The notes beneath the pieces were generated by a model. That model was not told where the DNA came from, made no database searches, and saw nothing but the letters and a program-made list of their open reading frames with translations. Positions 44,114 through 52,574 of a stretch of DNA of 64,000 bases are shown here, one piece after another. Within the stretch, counting starts at the first letter, position 1; the number at the start of each line of letters is the position of its first letter. The DNA is from an uncultured Lentisphaerota bacterium (lineage in GTDB: Bacteria; Verrucomicrobiota; Lentisphaeria; Victivallales; UBA1829), in the NCBI GenBank assembly GCA_900320095.1, contig ONQZ01000007.1, positions 534-64,533 on the forward strand, read 5' to 3'. The position numbers were made by a program, and so were the translations under genes.

Positions 44114-44168
44114 ATCGCACAAAAAAAGCTGTCGGGCGGCTCAATGTCGAACCGCCCGGAGCCGGGGA

Positions 44169-44702
44169 TCAGTAGTTGTCGGCCTCGATCTGGAAATAAG
44201 CCCGCGGATGGTTGCAGACGGGGCAGACTTCCGGCGGAGTGGTGCCGATGTAGATGTGGCCGCAGTTGCGGCATTCCCAGCGGTTTTCGCCGGTGCGGAC
44301 CCAGATTTCTCCGGTTTCGATGTTGGAGAGGAGCTTGCGGTAGCGTTCCTCGTGGCGCTTCTCAATGGCGGCGACGCCCTCGAACTGGGCGGCGATGTCG
44401 TTGAAGCCTTCTGCGCGCGCCTCTTCGGCGAAGCGCTTGTACATGTCGGTCCATTCCTCGCGTTCGCCTTCGGCGGCGGCCTTCAGGTTTTCGACGGTGG
44501 AGCCGATGCCGCCGAGGTGCTTGAACCAGAGCTTGGCGTGTTCCTTTTCATTGTCGGCGGTCTCGAGGAAGAACGCGGCGATCTGCTCGTAGCCTTCCTT
44601 CTTCGCCTTGCTGGCGAAGTAGGTGTATTTGTTGCGTGCCTGGGATTCGCCTGCGAACGCGAATGCGAGGTTCTTTTCGGTCTTGCTGCCTTTCAGTTCC
44701 AT
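44169..44702 (-). CDS. rbr: Rubrerythrin
   Basis: [27 protein letters not shown]-terminal CRNCG...CPVC; terminator hairpin plus T6 at about 44120-44160. Confidence 0.97.
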
Positions 44703-44775
44703 GATGAAAATCCTTTCATGGGTTTGAGGGTGTGGATTGGAGAAAGTGAGGGTAAATTGTCAGTTCGGTTCGAGG

Positions 44776-45324
44776 TCATCTTCTGCCGCGCTGGGGCGGC
44801 GGATCGGGGATGAACGGCTTGACCTTGTCGACGAGCTGGCGGGAGTTCAGCCCGAGTTCGCTGCAGAGGTCGAGCACGCGGATGAGCTTGCGGTACTTCA
44901 CGTTCGGGTCGCACTTGATGATGATCGTGGAGTTCGCGTCGGCCGCGGCGACGGCGGCAAGGCGTTCGCGGAGGCGGGAGACCTCCATCGGGGCGGAGCC
45001 GTTGAACGAATAGTACAGGCGTTCGTCCTTCAGGACCTCGTTCGGGTCGTCGCGGTCGCCGAGCGCGGCCAGGCGCGCGTCGATCTCGTCGATATTGTCG
45101 CGCGAATACTTGTCGACGTCGATGGTGATTGGGATGAGCGGGTCGGCGGCGACGGTCGACATGTCGGGCGCGGGCAGTTCCACGTTGATCATGACTTCCT
45201 CGGTGATCGGTTTCTGTGTCACGAGGAAGAAGATGAGCAGCAGGAAGACGACGTCGATCATGCTGGACAGGGGGAAGCTGGCGTCCGGGGGCGGATTGAG
45301 CTTGGTGGATTCTTTTCTTGCCAT
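44776..45324 (-). CDS. ExbD/TolR family protein (copy 2)
   Basis: PLSSMIDVVFLLLIFFLV (TM Asp), IIKCDPNVKY...VLD. Confidence 0.92.
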   Translation of the reverse strand: MARKESTKLNPPPDASFPLSSMIDVVFLLLIFFLVTQKPITEEVMINVELPAPDMSTVAADPLIPITIDVDKYSRDNIDEIDARLAALGDRDDPNEVLKDERLYYSFNGSAPMEVSRLRERLAAVAAADANSTIIIKCDPNVKYRKLIRVLDLCSELGLNSRQLVDKVKPFIPDPPPQRGRR

Positions 45325-45336
45325 GTTGCGCCTCCG

Positions 45337-45762
45337 TTATTCCTGCACGCCCGCGAGGCTGACTTTGTACAGCCCGGTCTTCTTGATCGCATCCAGGGCC
45401 TTCGCGCCGTAGTAATACTGCACCTGGCGGTCGCCGCGGATCACGATGGGGATCGACAGCGGATCGGGCGCGGTGCGCTTCACGTCCTCCAGCAGGGCGG
45501 TGAGTTCCGGGCCGGTCATGGCGCGGCCGCCGACGGTCATGGAGCCGTCCATGCGGAGGTTGATCGTGATGGTGCGCGGATCCTGCTTGACGACGGGGCG
45601 TCCGTTGGGGGCGTCGGCGAGGAGGACGCTTTCGTCCTGCATGTCCTTGTCAAGCGTGGCGGTCACGATGAAGAAGATGATGAGGAGGAAGACGATGTCG
45701 ATCATGCTGGAGATCGGCACCGATGCGGCTTCCTCGGTCATGAGTCTGGTTTTCTTGGCCAT
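45337..45762 (-). CDS. ExbD/TolR family protein (copy 1)
   Basis: PISSMIDIVFLLIIFFIV, VIRGDRQVQY. Confidence 0.93.
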   Translation of the reverse strand: MAKKTRLMTEEAASVPISSMIDIVFLLIIFFIVTATLDKDMQDESVLLADAPNGRPVVKQDPRTITINLRMDGSMTVGGRAMTGPELTALLEDVKRTAPDPLSIPIVIRGDRQVQYYYGAKALDAIKKTGLYKVSLAGVQE

Positions 45763-45798
45763 TTGTGATGCTCCTTTGAGCGGGATTCACGGGTGCGG

Positions 45799-46563
45799 TC
45801 ACTGTTCCTTGACTTCGGAGTTCTTCAGCGTGTTGATGAGTTCGTAGGTCATTGCCTCCATCATGAGGATGATCTTGGAGGCGTTGTTCTTGATGAACGT
45901 GAATCCGAGGATGGCGGGGACGGCGATGAAGAGGCCGACGGCGGTGGTGTAGAGTGCGGAGGAGATGGACTGCGCGAGCGCGGCGGTCTGCGCGGCGCCC
46001 TTCACGGTGCCGAGGCTGCCGAACGCGGACACCATGCCTGTGACCGTGCCCATGAGGCCGAACATCGGGGCGAGCTGGCCGCAGAGGTTGAGGTAGTTCA
46101 CGCGCTGCATGAGCTTTTCGGTCTCAATGCTGGCCTGCGAGGACACGGAGTCGAGCACGACGTCGTAGCCCTCGGTGATGCTGTTGAAGCCGGACATCAG
46201 GATGTTGGAGAGCGGGCCGGGGGTGGCTTCACAGGCTTCCATCGCGGCGCCCAGGTCGCCCTCGGCGAGCGAGTTCTTCACGGTCTCGATGAGGTCGGCG
46301 GGCATGATCTTCACCGCGCGAATGCAGACGCAGGAGTCGATGATGAGCGCGAGCGTGGCGAGCGAGGTCAGGAAGATCATGAGCCAGACGATCAGGTCCA
46401 TCGCCGTGCCGCCGAAGACGACCGACAGGAAACTGGTGCCCTTGGCAGCCGGTTCTTCCGCCGCTTCCGCGGCTTCCTGCGCCCAGGCGGGCATGGAGAG
46501 CAGAAGACCCGTGGCGGCGACGGCCGCGGCCGTCAGGAACGCTGAGGTGCGATTGAGTTTCAT
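45799..46563 (-). CDS. MotA/TolQ/ExbB proton channel protein
   Basis: Signal peptide, then APMFGLMGTVTGMVSAF and ALYTTAVGLFIAVPA. Confidence 0.94.
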   Translation of the reverse strand: MKLNRTSAFLTAAAVAATGLLLSMPAWAQEAAEAAEEPAAKGTSFLSVVFGGTAMDLIVWLMIFLTSLATLALIIDSCVCIRAVKIMPADLIETVKNSLAEGDLGAAMEACEATPGPLSNILMSGFNSITEGYDVVLDSVSSQASIETEKLMQRVNYLNLCGQLAPMFGLMGTVTGMVSAFGSLGTVKGAAQTAALAQSISSALYTTAVGLFIAVPAILGFTFIKNNASKIILMMEAMTYELINTLKNSEVKEQ

Positions 46564-46626
46564 ACGAATGATTCCTTTATGTTGAAAGTTTCGATTTGAT
46601 GACTTTTTCAGGTGGGGCAGGGGGGA

Positions 46627-47451
46627 TCAGAGCTGCTTGGCGTAGTCGCTCTTCGGGTAGTCCTTCTTCAGCTTGTCGGCGAAGATCTTCGCGCGGGCGT
46701 CGTTCAGCACGGTGAGCGTCTGGTAGGCGCGGAACGTCGCTTCGGCGGCGCGGCTGGACTTCGGGAAGAGAAGGCTGATCTGGGCGTAGGCGTTGAACGC
46801 GTCGCGGCGGTCATCCTGGGAGTTCGTTTCCGAGGCGCGGGCGGAGAGGATGTCGCCGCGTGCGAAGAGTGCGCTCACGGCCGCGGCGTCGCCGGCGTAC
46901 ATGAGTTTCTTGGAGAGTTCGAGCCCCTTGTCCCACGCCTTGATGTTGGCGTAGAACTTGATGAGGAGCTCGTATGCCGCGCTCAGGTCCGCCTCGTTGC
47001 GCGGACTGGCGTTCGAGTAGTCCTTCAGCGTCTCGAGCACCTTGATCGCCTCGGACTGCTTCCCGGAGGCGTCGAGCGCCTCGGCCTGGCGGAGCTTGCA
47101 GTAGGGTTCCCAGCCGAGTGGACCGAACGGCTTGACGAGTCCGGCGAACGTGGTGGCGGCTTCGTCGTATTTCTTGTTCGTGATGAGCTTGTCGGCGGCG
47201 GTGATCTCCTCCGGTTTCGGAATCCACGCCCAGCGGACGCGGTTTTTGCGGATGGAGAGTTTCGGGGAGCCGTCTTTCAGGGATTCAGCATAGCGGAAAT
47301 CGCCGCTCTGCGTGAGCTCGACGGACGCGGCGCGGATCTCCTCGCCGTCGGTCGTCATGATCACGGGTTTGGCGGAGGCGGCGGACTGCGCGGAGAGCTG
47401 GACTGCCGCCAGCAGGAGTCCGCCTGTGAGGAGCGTCATCAGTTTTTTCAT
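46627..47451 (-). CDS. Secreted TPR protein with BamD/CpoB-like C-terminal repeats (274 aa)
   Basis: Start MKKLMTLL (ATG at 47451, GAGG RBS); signal peptide; YAQISLLFPKS...KLKKDYPKSDYA. Confidence 0.75.
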   Translation of the reverse strand: MKKLMTLLTGGLLLAAVQLSAQSAASAKPVIMTTDGEEIRAASVELTQSGDFRYAESLKDGSPKLSIRKNRVRWAWIPKPEEITAADKLITNKKYDEAATTFAGLVKPFGPLGWEPYCKLRQAEALDASGKQSEAIKVLETLKDYSNASPRNEADLSAAYELLIKFYANIKAWDKGLELSKKLMYAGDAAAVSALFARGDILSARASETNSQDDRRDAFNAYAQISLLFPKSSRAAEATFRAYQTLTVLNDARAKIFADKLKKDYPKSDYAKQL

Positions 47452-47483
47452 CTGGTTACCTCGTTGTATGGATGATGTTTTGA

Positions 47484-50400
47484 TTATTGAGCCTGGGATG
47501 CCGGGAGGGAGCCGATTTCGGCGGCGTACTTCCCGTCGGGGAAATGCCTGCGGTATTTCCTGACCATGCGGTCGCGTTCTTCGGTGTTGCCGAGCAGGGC
47601 CGCCGTGTAGGCGGTACGGTAGATCGCCTGTTCGATCCACTGCATCGCGGCGGGATCAAACTCCTCTTCGGCGGCGGATTCTGTCTGCTGTCCGTCCACG
47701 GTCGCTCCTTCGGCCGTTTCGGCGGATCCTTCGCCGGTTTCGGGGACCGTCTCCGGTGCTATATCGGCGGAGGCGTCGTCCTCGTCTTCGGGGAACGCGG
47801 TCGCGGCGATGATGCTGAAGCATGCGTAAGCCTTGTTGATCGCGCCGGACTTCAGGAACGATTCGCCGGTCAGGACCTGCGCCTTGTTGTAGAGTTCGAA
47901 GTTTTCGGTCTGGTTGGCGCGCACGGAGATCTTTGCGAGTTCGGCGCGCGCTTCCTCGGCGCGTCCCTGCAGCTCGCGAGCCTCCGCCATCGCGAAGTGC
48001 ATGTCGTAGAAATAGGGCGAATCCTTCTCCAGCATTTCGATCTTCTCGAGCTCCGCGACCGCCTTTTCGAACTGCCCGGCCTTCGCGGCGGCGCGTCCGG
48101 CGTCCAGATGCAGGCGCTGTTCCAGCCTCGAAATGGCGGTCCGTGCGGCGGCCTTGTCGGATTTGAGTTCGGCGGCGCGCTGTTCGGAAAACCATTCGTC
48201 GAGGTTCGGATCCTGTATCGCCATGATGAGGCGTTCGCAGACCTTCAGTGCGATCTCCGCCGCTTTTTTCGCCTGGGATTCGTCGGGGCACTGGGAAAGC
48301 GTGGAGGCGATCCAGCGCAGATTCGTGATGGAGAGGTTCTTTGCCTGTTCCCCGGCGAAGAGCTTGTCGAAGATGTCGAGCGCCTTGGCGTAGTTGCCGG
48401 CGGTGTAGAGTGTGCGCGCAAGAACATACTGGGCGTTTTTCGCCTCGGCGGAATCCGGATAGCGGTTCACGAGCGTGGTCAGGATCTTCTGCGCCTCGCT
48501 GTCGCGGCCCATGTCCATGTGGATGATGCCGATGCGCATGAGGTAGGCCGAGGCGAGCGGATCGTCCGGATGCTTGCGCACGAACGACTCGAATTCGGAG
48601 ATCGCCTTGTCCCATTTTCCGGCGCCGTTGTACAGCCACGGGAGCAGGGAATCCGCGCGGCTGGCGGCCTTCTGCACCTCGGGCGTCTTCGCGACGGACG
48701 CGTATTTGCCGCCGTCTTCGAGTTCGCGGCGAAGCGCGAAGATCTCTTCCGCCGCCTCGTCATAGATCGTCGCGGCCTGCGCCTTGAGCTTGTCCGCCTT
48801 TTCGATCAGCGAGGCGTCCCCGGCGGCCTCGTCGCGGATGGACGCGGCCTGGTCGGCGAGACGGTCGGCCTCACGGGAAAGCATTTCGGGGATGATCTCC
48901 CGGACCACGGCGGCGACGGCCAGCGAGCTGGGGCCGAACGCGATGAATTTGCGGAGCGTGTTTGCCGCGCCATCGTAGTCGTCCTGCATGGCGAGGCAGT
49001 CGGCGTACTTCATGTATGCCTCGTCGGTCAGCTCGGGATTGTTGCCGAAATTCTCCATGATGACCTTGTAGGACGCCGCGGCTTTGTTCACTTGCGCCTG
49101 CCACTGCTTCTTCAGCGCGACGCGTTCGGCGGGATCGGACGAGGCGTTCAGGCGCTTGCCGATGGCGCTTGCCGAGTTCAGGTGTTCGCGTGCCACTCGG
49201 AGCGAGACGACGCCCGCGTAGGGATTCAGCATGTCAATGTCGAGCAGGAGCCTGTAAAGCGTGAGCGCGTCGCCCTTGAGCTGGGCGGCCTTCGCCGGAT
49301 CGGACGATGCCGCTTCGGCGGCCTGTTTCCACAGGATGTGTCCGGCGTTCAGGAGCGCGGTCGTGACGAAATCGTCCTTCGGGAGAAGCGCGGCATAGCT
49401 GCCCAGCACGACGGCGTTCGTGGAGTCGCCCATGTAGGCGTAGGAGAGGACAAGGCGGTTCACGAGCTCGGAGAGGCCGGGCGTGTAGCGGGACGCCATG
49501 CGCTGGAGGATGGGCAGGAGCTCCTCCACGACCAGATTGTACTGTTTGCTGGCGTAGTTCTGTTCCGCCCAGGCGGAAACGAGCGCGGACTGGTCGCTGG
49601 TCATCTCGGGCGCCTTGACCTTGGCGAATTCGGACTGATACGTGGATCGCTTGTCCGTGTCGATCGCCATGGCGCTTTCGGTGACCTGCTTGAAATCCTT
49701 GTACGCGGCCGGGGCGTCCTTGAACTGCGGATAATATTTCACGAGCTTGCCGAGGTACTTGAACGCGCGCCGGTAGTATGTGACCGCCTGCTTCTTGAGG
49801 TCGTTGTTCTTTTTCTCGTTGTATGCGGCCTCCGCCTGTTCGGCGAGCGCGAGGTAGGACCGCCCGGTCCAGAACTTTGCGTCCGCGGCGGGCGATTCGC
49901 TCTTCTTGCCGTCTTTTTCCAGCGCCTCGTCCGAAGCCTCGAAGAGGTCGGGATAACGCCGGACCTCCTCGCCGGCCTCCTCATATTCGCCGAGGAGGTA
50001 GAAACAGTGGATGATCTGGGCTGTGGCGTAGGCGGTGAGCATGTCCTGTCCGCCCCACTGGATGTCGTGGAAATCGACGGCGGAGGCGAGCACGGCGGTC
50101 TGCCAGTCGTTGGGGTCGACCCTGCGGAGACGGCTCTTGTCGCCGGAATTCCACTTGTCGCGGTTCTTCACCTCGCCGGAGGTCTTTTTGCGCGCGAGCT
50201 CCATTTCGTCGATCTTCATGACACGGTCGAGGTCCATGCCGAGGATTTCGCCGAGCTGCTTGTACGCCTTGATGCGGTCCTGCTGCTTGCCGGTGTTGCC
50301 GGGATTGTTCACGACCTCCTTCGTGAGGTCCGCGATGCGTTTCTGGAGGACGGTCAGTTCGGTCTGCTTGCTCTTGTCCTTCATCAGGTCGGAGAGCCTG

Positions 50401-51011
50401 CGCTGGAACGCCGCCTTCTCGCGCTGTTCGGCGCGACGGTTGTTCTCCGCGGTGGCGAGCTGCATGACGGCCTTGGTGTACATGGTGGCGCGTTTATCCG
50501 AGGTGGTGCCGCGGGTCCAGTCCATGAGCGAGGCGGCGTCGTTCTCGCGTCCCTCCTGGTAGTAGATGTTCAGCAGGGCGGTGAGGGGGCGCTCGAAGTC
50601 GGTCGGGTCGACCTTCTCGCGTTTCAGGTGGTTGTAGAGTTCCTCCAGCGGCTTCAGCGCCTTCTGGTTGTCCTTTTTCATGAAGTGGTACACGCCGAGC
50701 GTGCCGAGGGACTGGTAATAGGCGGGGTCGGTCTTCGGGATGCCGTCGATGATCTTCTGGGCTTCCTCGTTTTTCCCGGAGGCGAGATAGGTCTCCGCGA
50801 GCTGGACGCGGTAAAAATTCGCCATGTCCTTGCTCTTGTTTTCCGCCAGGCGTTCCGTGAGGAACCGCGTCGAGAAGTCGTACAGCCCCAGGGCGTTGAG
50901 CTCGCGCGAATATGCCATGTCGCGTTTGACCGCGCCCGACTGCGCGAACGCGGCCGCGCCCGGGAGCGTCAGCATCGCCAGTATCGCCAAATAACTGATT
51001 TTGTTCAGCAT
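47484..51011 (-). CDS. Large secreted TPR protein (1175 aa)
   Basis: Signal peptide MLNKISYLAILAMLTLPGAAAFA; many TPR-like units (FVRKHPDDP, LVNRYPDSAEAKNAQY, YRRHFPDGKY). Confidence 0.85.
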   Translation of the reverse strand: MLNKISYLAILAMLTLPGAAAFAQSGAVKRDMAYSRELNALGLYDFSTRFLTERLAENKSKDMANFYRVQLAETYLASGKNEEAQKIIDGIPKTDPAYYQSLGTLGVYHFMKKDNQKALKPLEELYNHLKREKVDPTDFERPLTALLNIYYQEGRENDAASLMDWTRGTTSDKRATMYTKAVMQLATAENNRRAEQREKAAFQRRLSDLMKDKSKQTELTVLQKRIADLTKEVVNNPGNTGKQQDRIKAYKQLGEILGMDLDRVMKIDEMELARKKTSGEVKNRDKWNSGDKSRLRRVDPNDWQTAVLASAVDFHDIQWGGQDMLTAYATAQIIHCFYLLGEYEEAGEEVRRYPDLFEASDEALEKDGKKSESPAADAKFWTGRSYLALAEQAEAAYNEKKNNDLKKQAVTYYRRAFKYLGKLVKYYPQFKDAPAAYKDFKQVTESAMAIDTDKRSTYQSEFAKVKAPEMTSDQSALVSAWAEQNYASKQYNLVVEELLPILQRMASRYTPGLSELVNRLVLSYAYMGDSTNAVVLGSYAALLPKDDFVTTALLNAGHILWKQAAEAASSDPAKAAQLKGDALTLYRLLLDIDMLNPYAGVVSLRVAREHLNSASAIGKRLNASSDPAERVALKKQWQAQVNKAAASYKVIMENFGNNPELTDEAYMKYADCLAMQDDYDGAANTLRKFIAFGPSSLAVAAVVREIIPEMLSREADRLADQAASIRDEAAGDASLIEKADKLKAQAATIYDEAAEEIFALRRELEDGGKYASVAKTPEVQKAASRADSLLPWLYNGAGKWDKAISEFESFVRKHPDDPLASAYLMRIGIIHMDMGRDSEAQKILTTLVNRYPDSAEAKNAQYVLARTLYTAGNYAKALDIFDKLFAGEQAKNLSITNLRWIASTLSQCPDESQAKKAAEIALKVCERLIMAIQDPNLDEWFSEQRAAELKSDKAAARTAISRLEQRLHLDAGRAAAKAGQFEKAVAELEKIEMLEKDSPYFYDMHFAMAEARELQGRAEEARAELAKISVRANQTENFELYNKAQVLTGESFLKSGAINKAYACFSIIAATAFPEDEDDASADIAPETVPETGEGSAETAEGATVDGQQTESAAEEEFDPAAMQWIEQAIYRTAYTAALLGNTEERDRMVRKYRRHFPDGKYAAEIGSLPASQAQ

Positions 51012-51073
51012 AAAAACTCCGGCCGTGTCAGGTTTTCTTTATAAAATATGGACGTCAGAAAAAAATACCCCAT

Positions 51074-51102
51074 ATTATATCACAGTTTTTGTCAAATGTC
51101 AA
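51074..51102 (-). promoter_or_regulatory. Perfect-consensus promoter of the TPR-ExbBDD operon
   Basis: TTGACA-17-TATAAT with an extended TG. Confidence 0.85.
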
Positions 51103-52574
51103 GCGTATTTTGTCAGGCTTTTTGCCCAAATCGACAGACTTTCGTCGCGCGCGCCCGCCACGATCACCACGTCGCCGCGTTTCACGGCCTGGTTCAGATA
51201 CTTTTCGCACTCCTGGCGGTCCTCGAAATCCAGGACGGAAGCGGCTCTGGCGCCCGACGCCTCACGGCAGGTCACGGCGACCTCGGCGCTGGTCGGGCTG
51301 AACGACGCCGTGCCGCCCGCGTAGTAGACCGGCAGGAAGATGAACTGGTCGGCGGGACGCAGGATCGAGGGCAGGGCTTTCGCGAGGGCTTCGCGCATGA
51401 ACCTCAGCGGGGCGAATCCGTGCGGCTGGAAGACCGTAATCACGCGGCCGTCCGGGGCGAGCTCCTGCGCCGCGCCGATGCACGACGCCAGCTTCTCCAC
51501 ATTGTGCGCATAGTCGTCGATGACCTGCGCGCCGTTCGCCATGACGCCCGCGCGGTCGAACCGACGCGCCACGCCGCTGAACTCGGAAACCGCCTTTAGC
51601 GCCTCCGTGGAATCGTAGCCGCGCGAGGTCAGCACGGTATGCACCGCGAGCGCGTTCATGGCGTTGTGACGGCCCGGCATCGGGAGACGGATCTCCGGCA
51701 GGCCGTTGAACGCGCACCACGCGCTGCCGTCCGCCACGCGGTAGGAATCCAGCCGCAGGACGGGGCGTCCGGCGCAGGAGACGGGCGCGTCCGGATCGCC
51801 GCTGAAGAGCAGGATCATTTTTCCCGAGGGGAATTTTTCCGGGCCGATCTCCTGAAACGCCGCCAGCTCCATGACCACGCACGAGCGCGCCGAGTCGGCG
51901 AATTCCAGGAAGACTTCGGCGAGCTCCTCGCGGGAATAGTGGTCCGTGCCGATGTTCAGGATGAGCGCGGCGTCCGGCACATAATTCAGCAGACTCTTGT
52001 CGCTCTCGTCCGCCTCGATCACGAAATCGCGCCCGAATCCGCCGCGGTAGTTCCCCGCCGCGCCGCCCTCGCGGAAGCGTTTCACATAGCCGCCGCTCAG
52101 CATCCCCGGATCGCCGCCGAGACGGTCCAGCGAGTCCGCCAGCCAGGCGCTCACGGTCGTTTTGCCGCATGTGCCTGTCACGGCGATCGTGAAGCGTCCG
52201 CGCAGCGCCTTGATCCCGAGCGACAGCGCCTCGCTCCTGTGGAGACGGCGCGTGCCCGGCGGCGCGCATCGGAAGTCGGGGTTGTCCTCCTCGATCGCGG
52301 TCGAGTAGACGATCGCGTCCGGCACATAGCCGTCCGCGTAGACCGAGCCGTCCTGCGGACAGAGTTTCGCGCCGCATTTGCGGAGCGCCGCGAAGATGCG
52401 TTCATTCTCCGGGTGTCCGAGCGCACGGTCGCTGCCGGTTACGGTGCAGCCGAGGTCGCGGAACATCTGTGCGAGTCCGCTCATGCCGATGCCGCCGATG
52501 CCGACGAAGTGGATGGATTTCGGGAGATCCGGATGCGCTCCGGAGGAAGATTTGACGGTCGGTTCCGATGTCAT
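51099..52574 (-). CDS. MurC/Mpl-like amino acid ligase (divergent)
   Basis: HFVGIGGIGMSGLA, VTGSD, GTCGKTT, VIEADESD, MPGRHNAMNA, IDDYAHN, VFQPH. Confidence 0.85.
   Translation of the reverse strand: MTSEPTVKSSSGAHPDLPKSIHFVGIGGIGMSGLAQMFRDLGCTVTGSDRALGHPENERIFAALRKCGAKLCPQDGSVYADGYVPDAIVYSTAIEEDNPDFRCAPPGTRRLHRSEALSLGIKALRGRFTIAVTGTCGKTTVSAWLADSLDRLGGDPGMLSGGYVKRFREGGAAGNYRGGFGRDFVIEADESDKSLLNYVPDAALILNIGTDHYSREELAEVFLEFADSARSCVVMELAAFQEIGPEKFPSGKMILLFSGDPDAPVSCAGRPVLRLDSYRVADGSAWCAFNGLPEIRLPMPGRHNAMNALAVHTVLTSRGYDSTEALKAVSEFSGVARRFDRAGVMANGAQVIDDYAHNVEKLASCIGAAQELAPDGRVITVFQPHGFAPLRFMREALAKALPSILRPADQFIFLPVYYAGGTASFSPTSAEVAVTCREASGARAASVLDFEDRQECEKYLNQAVKRGDVVIVAGARDESLSIWAKSLTKYA

Follow-up and report, generated by a model that had tools for sequence, protein, structure and literature searches.

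The subject of this report is a five-gene cassette on the minus strand of a 64,000-nucleotide window (the whole stretch of DNA analysed, from contig ONQZ01000007.1 of an uncultured Lentisphaerota bacterium), which encodes two exported tetratricopeptide repeat (TPR) proteins, one ExbB-type and two ExbD-type proton-motor subunits, and which was compared with the MUL1 system of Akkermansia muciniphila. The window is contig C34 of an 80-contig, 2.75-Mb genome with a completeness of 92.7%. Six co-directional open reading frames (ORFs), whose codon usage was coding-like in a self-trained coding model, lie on the minus strand at 44169-51011 and are separated by gaps of 12-73 nt. In the direction of transcription they encode a giant exported TPR protein of 1175 aa, a Mul1A-type scaffold (47484..51011; Pfam TPR families); a small exported protein of 273 aa, a distant Mul1B homologue (46627..47448; NF052542 and hhalign); an ExbB/TolQ-family proton-channel subunit of 254 aa (45799..46563; PF01618, 89 bits); ExbD1, the first-position ExbD/TolR paralogue of 141 aa (45337..45762; PF02472); ExbD2, the second-position paralogue of 182 aa (44776..45324; PF02472); and a rubrerythrin of 177 aa (44169..44702; NF045767, 248 bits, above the cut-off). 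Pfam and NCBIfam backed every assignment for all six genes and, with the codon usage, confirmed the gene list of the first-pass annotation, which had been made from the letters of the sequence. Long plus-strand ORFs that overlap the six genes were classed as shadow frames by their codon usage, which was not coding-like. The start of the small TPR gene was placed at 47448 (MKKLM), matching the start in all its homologues; the mechanical GTG start of this ORF at 47640 would overlap the giant gene. The giant and small TPR genes are each present once in the genome. As the first reading had stated, neither TonB, TolA, TolB or Pal nor a TonB-dependent receptor was found in the operon by Pfam and NCBIfam scans.

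A consensus sigma-70 promoter (TTGACA-17-TATAAT, the -10 box being of the extended TG type) was located by pattern scan at 51074..51102 on the minus strand, approximately 60 nt upstream of the start codon of the giant TPR gene. It is the sole perfect match in the window, with no match in 100 shuffles, as the first-pass annotation had claimed of the only perfect-consensus promoter that it found. A perfect copy is present in the closest relative (locus L039), and near-consensus promoters are present in L041 and L042. Immediately upstream lies a murC-like ligase gene (51099-52574), which scored 244 bits against TIGR01082, under the 335-bit cut-off, and whose stop codon falls within the -35 box; this gene also adjoins the cassette in L039, L038, L011, and L012, and in L034 it adjoins a homologue of the small TPR gene. 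Two terminator-like sites were listed by the scan on the minus strand. One, at 44219-44200, falls within the rubrerythrin coding sequence; the other, just past rubrerythrin (44133..44158, read 44158-44133 on the minus strand), consists of an 11-bp stem followed by a T-run and is the sole site on that strand outside coding regions, so that the earlier observation of no terminator before the end of rubrerythrin was upheld. Among the relatives, L039 alone has a rubrerythrin gene after ExbD2; L038 (same genus) and the more distant loci L011 and L012 do not. Because this adjacency holds only in the closest relative, rubrerythrin is, on the evidence of gene order, an adjacent passenger outside the conserved cassette, possibly co-transcribed with it and sharing its terminator. 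Synteny thus ruled it out as a component of the system, and the earlier inclusion of rubrerythrin in the machine encoded by the operon had to be given up.

Both TPR proteins and ExbB share N-terminal A-x-A|Q signal peptides, with no lipobox in any of them; the signal peptide ends AFA|Q in the giant TPR protein (no lipobox Cys), LSA|Q in the small protein, and AWA|Q, which looks cleavable, in ExbB. In an AlphaFold2 (AF2) model with a mean predicted local distance difference test (pLDDT) score of 82, the giant TPR protein was predicted to be an all-alpha solenoid of approximately 55 helices, with an acidic disordered insert at residues 1078-1117. The AF2 model of the small protein (pLDDT 92.4) combines a six-strand beta domain (residues 29-75) with ten TPR-like helices, and the protein carries a conserved AWIPKP motif. 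Fold searches with both models returned generic TPR scaffolds only (for example BamD, LapB, IFT-A, and Ski3); at low template modelling (TM) scores they also listed SprE of the type IX secretion system (T9SS) and a flagellar-stator scaffold from Campylobacter, and none of these matches was informative. The suggestion that the giant solenoid transmits force, and the further link to sorted surface proteins, both made in the first-pass annotation, found no support. Orthologues of the giant TPR protein, at 27-95% identity, were always encoded within the same cassette. A word-based protein search returned 38 proteins with at least 60% identity, then 11 at 30-35%; orthologues at 60-95% represent a narrow Lentisphaeria clade, and at 30-35% all five genes of the cassette and the Mur ligase gene upstream of them are retained, with different genes past ExbD2. 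The small proteins form a discrete family of 250-280 aa, with 162 clusters at 50% identity when 1.8 billion representative proteins were searched with phmmer.

In the A. muciniphila type strain, the MUL1 locus is ordered ExbB (263 aa), ExbD (168 aa), ExbD (152 aa), a 1.1-kb gap, Mul1A (approximately 1080-1100 aa, TPR), and Mul1B (347 aa; NF052542, 292 bits); the three motor genes are Amuc_0546-0548. Davey et al. 2023 is reportedly the original MUL study, and which of the MUL1 genes were mutated is taken from papers that cite it. MUL1, the one member of the cassette family with published genetics, is reported to be needed for mucin import and for growth on mucin. The mul1A gene (Amuc_0544) is described in PMC12570417 as a mucin transport gene needed for colonisation, the mutant colonising poorly; PMC12418764 describes MUL genes as required for mucin products to build up in internal compartments, and PMC13524802 reports that large portions of mucin are taken into the periplasm. 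When the window small protein was compared with Mul1B using hhalign, the probability was 95-97% (E 3e-10 to 2.6e-8), and the alignment spanned 220-266 colinear columns. Its TPR region also matched E. coli CpoB (92%), and therefore the N-terminal beta domain and first helix were tested alone; this part matched Mul1B at the equivalent position with 92.6% probability, versus 9-12% for CpoB and giant-TPR controls. Mul1B itself reached 0.2-1% against CpoB and giant-TPR controls. For the giant protein, BLASTP against Mul1A found repeat-level similarity only, and the direct profile match between the Lentisphaeria family and Mul1A was local (E 2.8e-15, 242 columns). Profiles connected the two in steps, both by full-length colinear matches: the Lentisphaeria family matched Kiritimatiellia (E 3e-41, 912 columns), and Kiritimatiellia in turn matched the Mul1A type of Verrucomicrobiota (E 3e-33, 753 columns). 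Another ExbB-linked TPR protein of the genome, on contig C29, was matched by the Mul1A profile as well, at 97%. The window ExbB is 33% identical to the MUL1 ExbB, and both have a signal peptide followed by AQEAAEA.

By these comparisons of sequences and profiles, the window cassette is homologous to MUL1 in every part. The two loci contain the same five parts (giant TPR protein, small beta-plus-TPR protein, signal-peptide ExbB, and two ExbD proteins), and neither has a TonB or a transducer of the von Willebrand factor A (vWA) kind. They differ in gene order, the TPR genes leading in the window locus and ExbB-ExbD-ExbD leading in Akkermansiaceae; in the small subunit, with 273 aa in the window versus 347 aa in Akkermansia Mul1B; and in the number of Plug-domain receptors in the genome, of which Akkermansia has 2 and the window genome none. 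Since the host is a Victivallales bacterium, the substrate, if there is any, is not known to be mucin. The cassette is thus a real and conserved unit, a new member of the already-known kind represented by MUL1, in minimal form and with a permuted gene order. The first-pass annotation had called the machine uncharacterised, a description that does not stand given the homology to MUL1 and a related layout reported from the Planctomycetota-Verrucomicrobiota-Chlamydiota (PVC) group in PMC12204202; macromolecule uptake, one of several functions that it had listed, is the role of the only studied relative, MUL1.

Distribution was examined by gathering 80 loci with an alignment of cassette ExbB proteins as the seed and annotating them with hidden Markov models (HMMs). 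A TPR gene together with ExbB and two ExbD genes was found in 43 of the 80, from Lentisphaerae, Kiritimatiellia, Verrucomicrobiota, and Planctomycetota, and the complete set of giant TPR protein, small protein, ExbB, ExbD, and ExbD was annotated in the same four groups. In the Planctomycetota variant the small protein has 340-400 aa and the giant gene is sometimes placed after ExbD2; relatives outside PVC have a single ExbD. The earlier description of a PVC envelope machine with a motor of ExbB and two ExbD proteins, TPR partners that are exported, and no TonB is therefore borne out by this survey, which shows the system to be PVC-wide. Among 301 sampled genomes of the phylum, the small-protein family was detected in 230 (E <=1e-5), of which approximately 115-120 had strong full-length matches; some of the weak matches may reflect the similarity that TPR proteins share in general, and one large family belonging to the same order gave weak matches or none. 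When the same 301 genomes were searched with NF052542 (the NCBIfam model named Mul1B family putative transporter subunit), true members were found only in Akkermansiaceae, with weak N-terminal matches elsewhere (21.5-39.8 bits in the window genus). In 13 of 14 fetched loci the weak Mul1B match lay directly upstream of ExbB and ExbD genes, with two ExbD genes in nearly all. At one locus of the same family (L034, on contig C84 of genome G082), a full-length small-TPR homologue (HMM score 282 bits) directly follows the murC-like gene, with no giant TPR, ExbB, or ExbD gene within 9 kb, and the cassette there appears to be split or partly lost.

The related PVC layout, described in PMC12204202 (2025), consists of a TPR gene, one TolQ-like gene, two TolR-like genes, and at the end a vWA transducer, a protein tethered in the inner membrane that has an SHLS-type transmembrane helix; its first part, in which a TPR gene precedes a single TolQ-like gene and two dissimilar TolR-like genes, is also seen in the window locus. 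In Verrucomicrobiae cassette loci, a vWA gene whose product has a transmembrane helix with an S-x3-H motif directly follows ExbD2, and in twelve Kiritimatiellia loci the same position is occupied by a gene for an alpha-toroid membrane protein of 480-585 aa. The membrane proteins encoded after ExbD2 in the Kiritimatiellia loci L043-L059 and L077 had weak matches to squalene-cyclase/prenyltransferase alpha-toroids, and in six Kiritimatiellia loci the toroid gene is followed by genes for a MacB-like permease (FtsX and MacB_PCD) and an ABC ATPase. The vWA gene of the PMC12204202 layout and the toroid gene of the Kiritimatiellia cassettes are both lacking in the Lentisphaeria and Akkermansiaceae loci. 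No homologue of the vWA or the toroid protein was found in the window genome by tblastn (E 0.01) or by HMMs (E 1e-4); as this genome is 92.7% complete, the absence is likely, not certain. Because neither family has a homologue there, the window copy is, as judged from the available contigs, a minimal form of the cassette, for which neither the locus nor the rest of the genome encodes a membrane-anchored transducer.

The motor subunits belong to the same families as those of Ton and Tol-Pal (PF01618 and PF02472) and retain the Asp and Thr residues of the proton pathway. Alignment placed a transmembrane Asp of both ExbD1 and ExbD2 opposite the Asp that is invariant in ExbD and TolR of E. coli, and T173 and T207 of ExbB opposite residues invariant across E. 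coli ExbB, TolQ, and the Akkermansia ExbB, which agrees with what the first reading had noticed of the Asp in both ExbD copies and the Thr motifs of ExbB. ExbD2 has in addition a periplasmic insert of approximately 40 residues and a Pro-rich C-terminal tail. The cassette TPR proteins weakly resemble CpoB/YbgF of Tol-Pal. The cassette differs from Ton and Tol in having two ExbD proteins where those systems have one, in the lack of a TonB/TolA arm, receptor, TolB, or Pal in the locus, and in an acidic residue of ExbB: the Glu that E. coli ExbB and TolQ have in 'IAEAL', a motif of the last transmembrane helix, is replaced by Ser in the window ExbB (around residues 200-204), and in cassette ExbB proteins, including that of MUL1, this position was Ser, Gly, Thr, Gln, or Val and never acidic. 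None of the equivalog cut-offs was reached, either for Ton (ExbB, TIGR02797, 37.7 versus 206; ExbD, TIGR02803, 38.8 and 32 versus 153) or for Tol (TolQ, 79.9 versus 221; TolR, 44 and 40 versus 127; YbgF, 58 versus 90).

In the ExbB tree, the window protein was placed in a cassette clade of 29 rows from Lentisphaeria and Kiritimatiellia (99% support) and the MUL1 ExbB in a cassette clade of 22 rows from Verrucomicrobiota (96%), so that the two belong to different clades that track taxonomy. E. coli ExbB and TolQ grouped instead with a paralogue from the window genome that is encoded beside a TonB_2 protein (98%). The window ExbB thus stands apart from the canonical Ton and Tol proteins, and the grouping with them that the first-pass annotation had named as evidence against its proposal was not observed. 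In an ExbD tree of 167 rows, first-position copies required 3 label changes versus a shuffled mean of 53, and second-position copies required 9 versus 52.8. As the two kinds of copy fall in largely separate groups, the ExbD duplication appears, from this tree, to be older than the divergence of the sampled PVC lineages; such an ancient split fits an obligate heteromeric pair.

The remaining Ton and Tol components of the genome were searched for as well. Neither the Plug domain (PF07715) nor the receptor barrel (PF00593) had a match in the genome, with matches obtained in control genomes, and no TolB_N was found in the genome. Plug domains were also lacking in five other Lentisphaeria and in two further cassette-bearing genomes of the phylum, which argues against TonB-dependent receptors as the partners served by the cassette. 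One OmpA-family gene is present in the genome, away from the cassette locus. The sole TonB_2 protein, encoded on contig C43 (321 aa; 35.5 bits versus a cut-off of 22), has a transmembrane helix with a His residue, a Pro/Lys-rich linker, and a TolA-like helical stretch, and its gene directly follows its own, different ExbB-ExbD pair.

Five MotA_ExbB genes are present in the genome, and the clusters found at other motor loci were recorded. At C43:1093-7103 (L008), genes for an ExbD (160 aa), a membrane-anchored protein of 958 aa (no Pfam match) in which long low-complexity stretches are rich in Gln and Gly, a signal-peptide ExbB (259 aa), and an ExbD (140 aa) are preceded by a gene for an alpha/beta-hydrolase lipoprotein. 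The cluster at C29:20313-25135 (L010) encodes a 976-aa TPR protein, an ExbB (214 aa), one ExbD, and a 264-aa protein that has a His-containing transmembrane helix and no Pfam match; its ExbB groups with TPR-ExbB-ExbD loci of Omnitrophota and with an Akkermansia paralogue. At C17:5642-7932 (L007), an ExbB fused to an N-terminal extracytoplasmic domain (approximately 280 aa, no Pfam match) is encoded ahead of two ExbD proteins.

About twelve secretin-family genes were detected in the genome. They are located at C43:58251-61423, C79:1121-4777, C27:27951-31189, and C67:574-3839, with further genes on C19, C2, and C38 (two). They include four tandem pairs, in which a gene for a protein of approximately 470-540 aa lies beside a longer one (approximately 540 and 670 aa where the start was clear), and one pair is located approximately 6 kb from the ExbB-ExbD-TonB_2 cluster of C43.

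The homology of the cassette to MUL1 is well supported, and from this analogy its function is inferred. The explanation that we favour, with modest confidence, is that the cassette is a minimal Lentisphaeria orthologue of a PVC-wide MUL1-type system that powers the uptake of large glycans or glycoproteins independently of TonB. As homology shows, ExbB and ExbD1/ExbD2 form a proton-driven inner-membrane motor of the Ton/Tol 5:2 type, in which the plug would be an ExbD1/ExbD2 heterodimer. With no arm of the TonB/TolA type, the periplasmic domains of the ExbD proteins would act on both TPR proteins, which are soluble and periplasmic, and these might in turn serve as a scaffold or gate for a route by which large glycans or glycoproteins cross the outer membrane. 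TonB-dependent receptors are lacking in the window organism, whose genome carries about twelve secretin-family genes; there, this route could conceivably be a channel of the secretin or pilus type. The stronger claim, that this represents a third class of envelope system with a 5:2 motor, beside Ton and Tol, in which, in the minimal form of Lentisphaeria and Akkermansia, an obligate ExbD heterodimer acts directly on soluble TPR proteins, with no transducer anchored in the membrane, in the receptor-independent import of macromolecules, perhaps via secretins, is put forward tentatively and is more doubtful than the MUL1-type role itself.

Several observations weigh against a MUL1-type uptake function. 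The functional assignment rests on one distant relative, with 33% identity for ExbB and profile-level similarity only for the TPR proteins. The window small protein scored 26.8 bits against NF052542, with a match to the N-terminal 100 residues only, versus a cut-off of 75 bits, and therefore lies outside the curated Mul1B subfamily. A MUL2-like secretin partner was rejected, as the best of the three secretins scanned reached 61.5 bits versus the 750-bit cut-off of the Amuc_1098 family. The backbone of the ExbB tree is poorly resolved, and a single origin of all cassette ExbB proteins is neither shown nor rejected by it. The neighbouring genes (the murC-like ligase, an aldo-keto reductase, and an ORF that we take to be argC, to which no domain scan was applied) are unrelated to glycan use. 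Finally, the strong consensus promoter and the near-universal distribution in PVC look housekeeping-like.

This last point is shared by the main rival explanation, a serious alternative that we nevertheless consider rather unlikely, namely that the cassette has a Tol-like role in envelope maintenance. A TolQ/TolR-type motor with CpoB/YbgF-like TPR proteins would then couple outer-membrane stability or constriction to peptidoglycan synthesis in PVC bacteria without TolB, and the mucin phenotype of MUL1 in Akkermansia would be the indirect result of an envelope defect. The best NCBIfam matches of the motor are to TolQ (79.9 bits) and TolR, the best solved-structure matches of ExbB are TolQ entries, and both TPR proteins match tol_pal_ybgF, with Akkermansia Mul1A above the cut-off of that model (92.9 versus 90.1 bits); but all window scores fall under the equivalog cut-offs, and the similarity of the TPR proteins to CpoB is generic (hhalign 92%, TPR region only). 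The adjacency of the murC-like gene in L039, L038, L011, L012, and L034, the near-universal presence in the phylum, the strong promoter, and the lack of TolB_N in the genome count for a Tol-like role. Against these, the locus contains no TolA, TolB, or Pal, and it is the paralogue beside TonB_2, not the window ExbB, that groups with E. coli TolQ and ExbB. In addition, mul1A mutants are viable, and PMC12570417 and PMC12418764 present them as mutants in transport or utilisation.

It is less likely again, and on balance improbable, that the cassette is simply one more ExbBD paralogue of the ordinary kind, energising the 321-aa TonB/TolA-like protein of C43 in trans. Such a protein does exist, scoring above its cut-off, and ExbBD and TolQR are known to cross-talk in E. 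coli. However, the C43 protein has an adjacent ExbB-ExbD pair of its own, the genome contains neither a TonB-dependent receptor nor TolB for it to act on, and the cassette is invariably accompanied by a TPR pair of its own, to which other PVC lineages add a vWA or toroid membrane protein of their own. Less likely still, and hardly to be expected, is a surface-motility motor of the Agl type. In Myxococcus, AglR/Q/S comprises one TolQ-like and two TolR-like subunits, and the comparison drawn from it would be an analogy of stoichiometry. No Glt-type partners are encoded in the locus, PVC sequences predominate in the two-ExbD clades of the sampled tree, and Akkermansia, non-motile according to PMC12418764, retains the cassette. 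A role in anti-phage defence, as in the Zorya-like MotAB system, was considered and rejected, since none of the five proteins had a PADLOC match.

For the window alone, the gain is a correct annotation. For the PVC group, the MUL1 parts list is no speciality of Akkermansia and instead represents a PVC-wide, vertically inherited cassette, with two ExbD paralogues that appear to be ancient, which persists in genomes that have neither a TonB-dependent receptor nor TolB. The natural variants, with no transducer, with a vWA protein, or with an alpha-toroid protein, are offered for comparative and structural work. These results bear on how MUL1 may use ExbB and ExbD without TonB, and they narrow the mechanistic options. 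If the cassette does represent a third class of 5:2-motor system, it would explain the uptake of polymers in PVC bacteria that have no TonB-dependent receptors.

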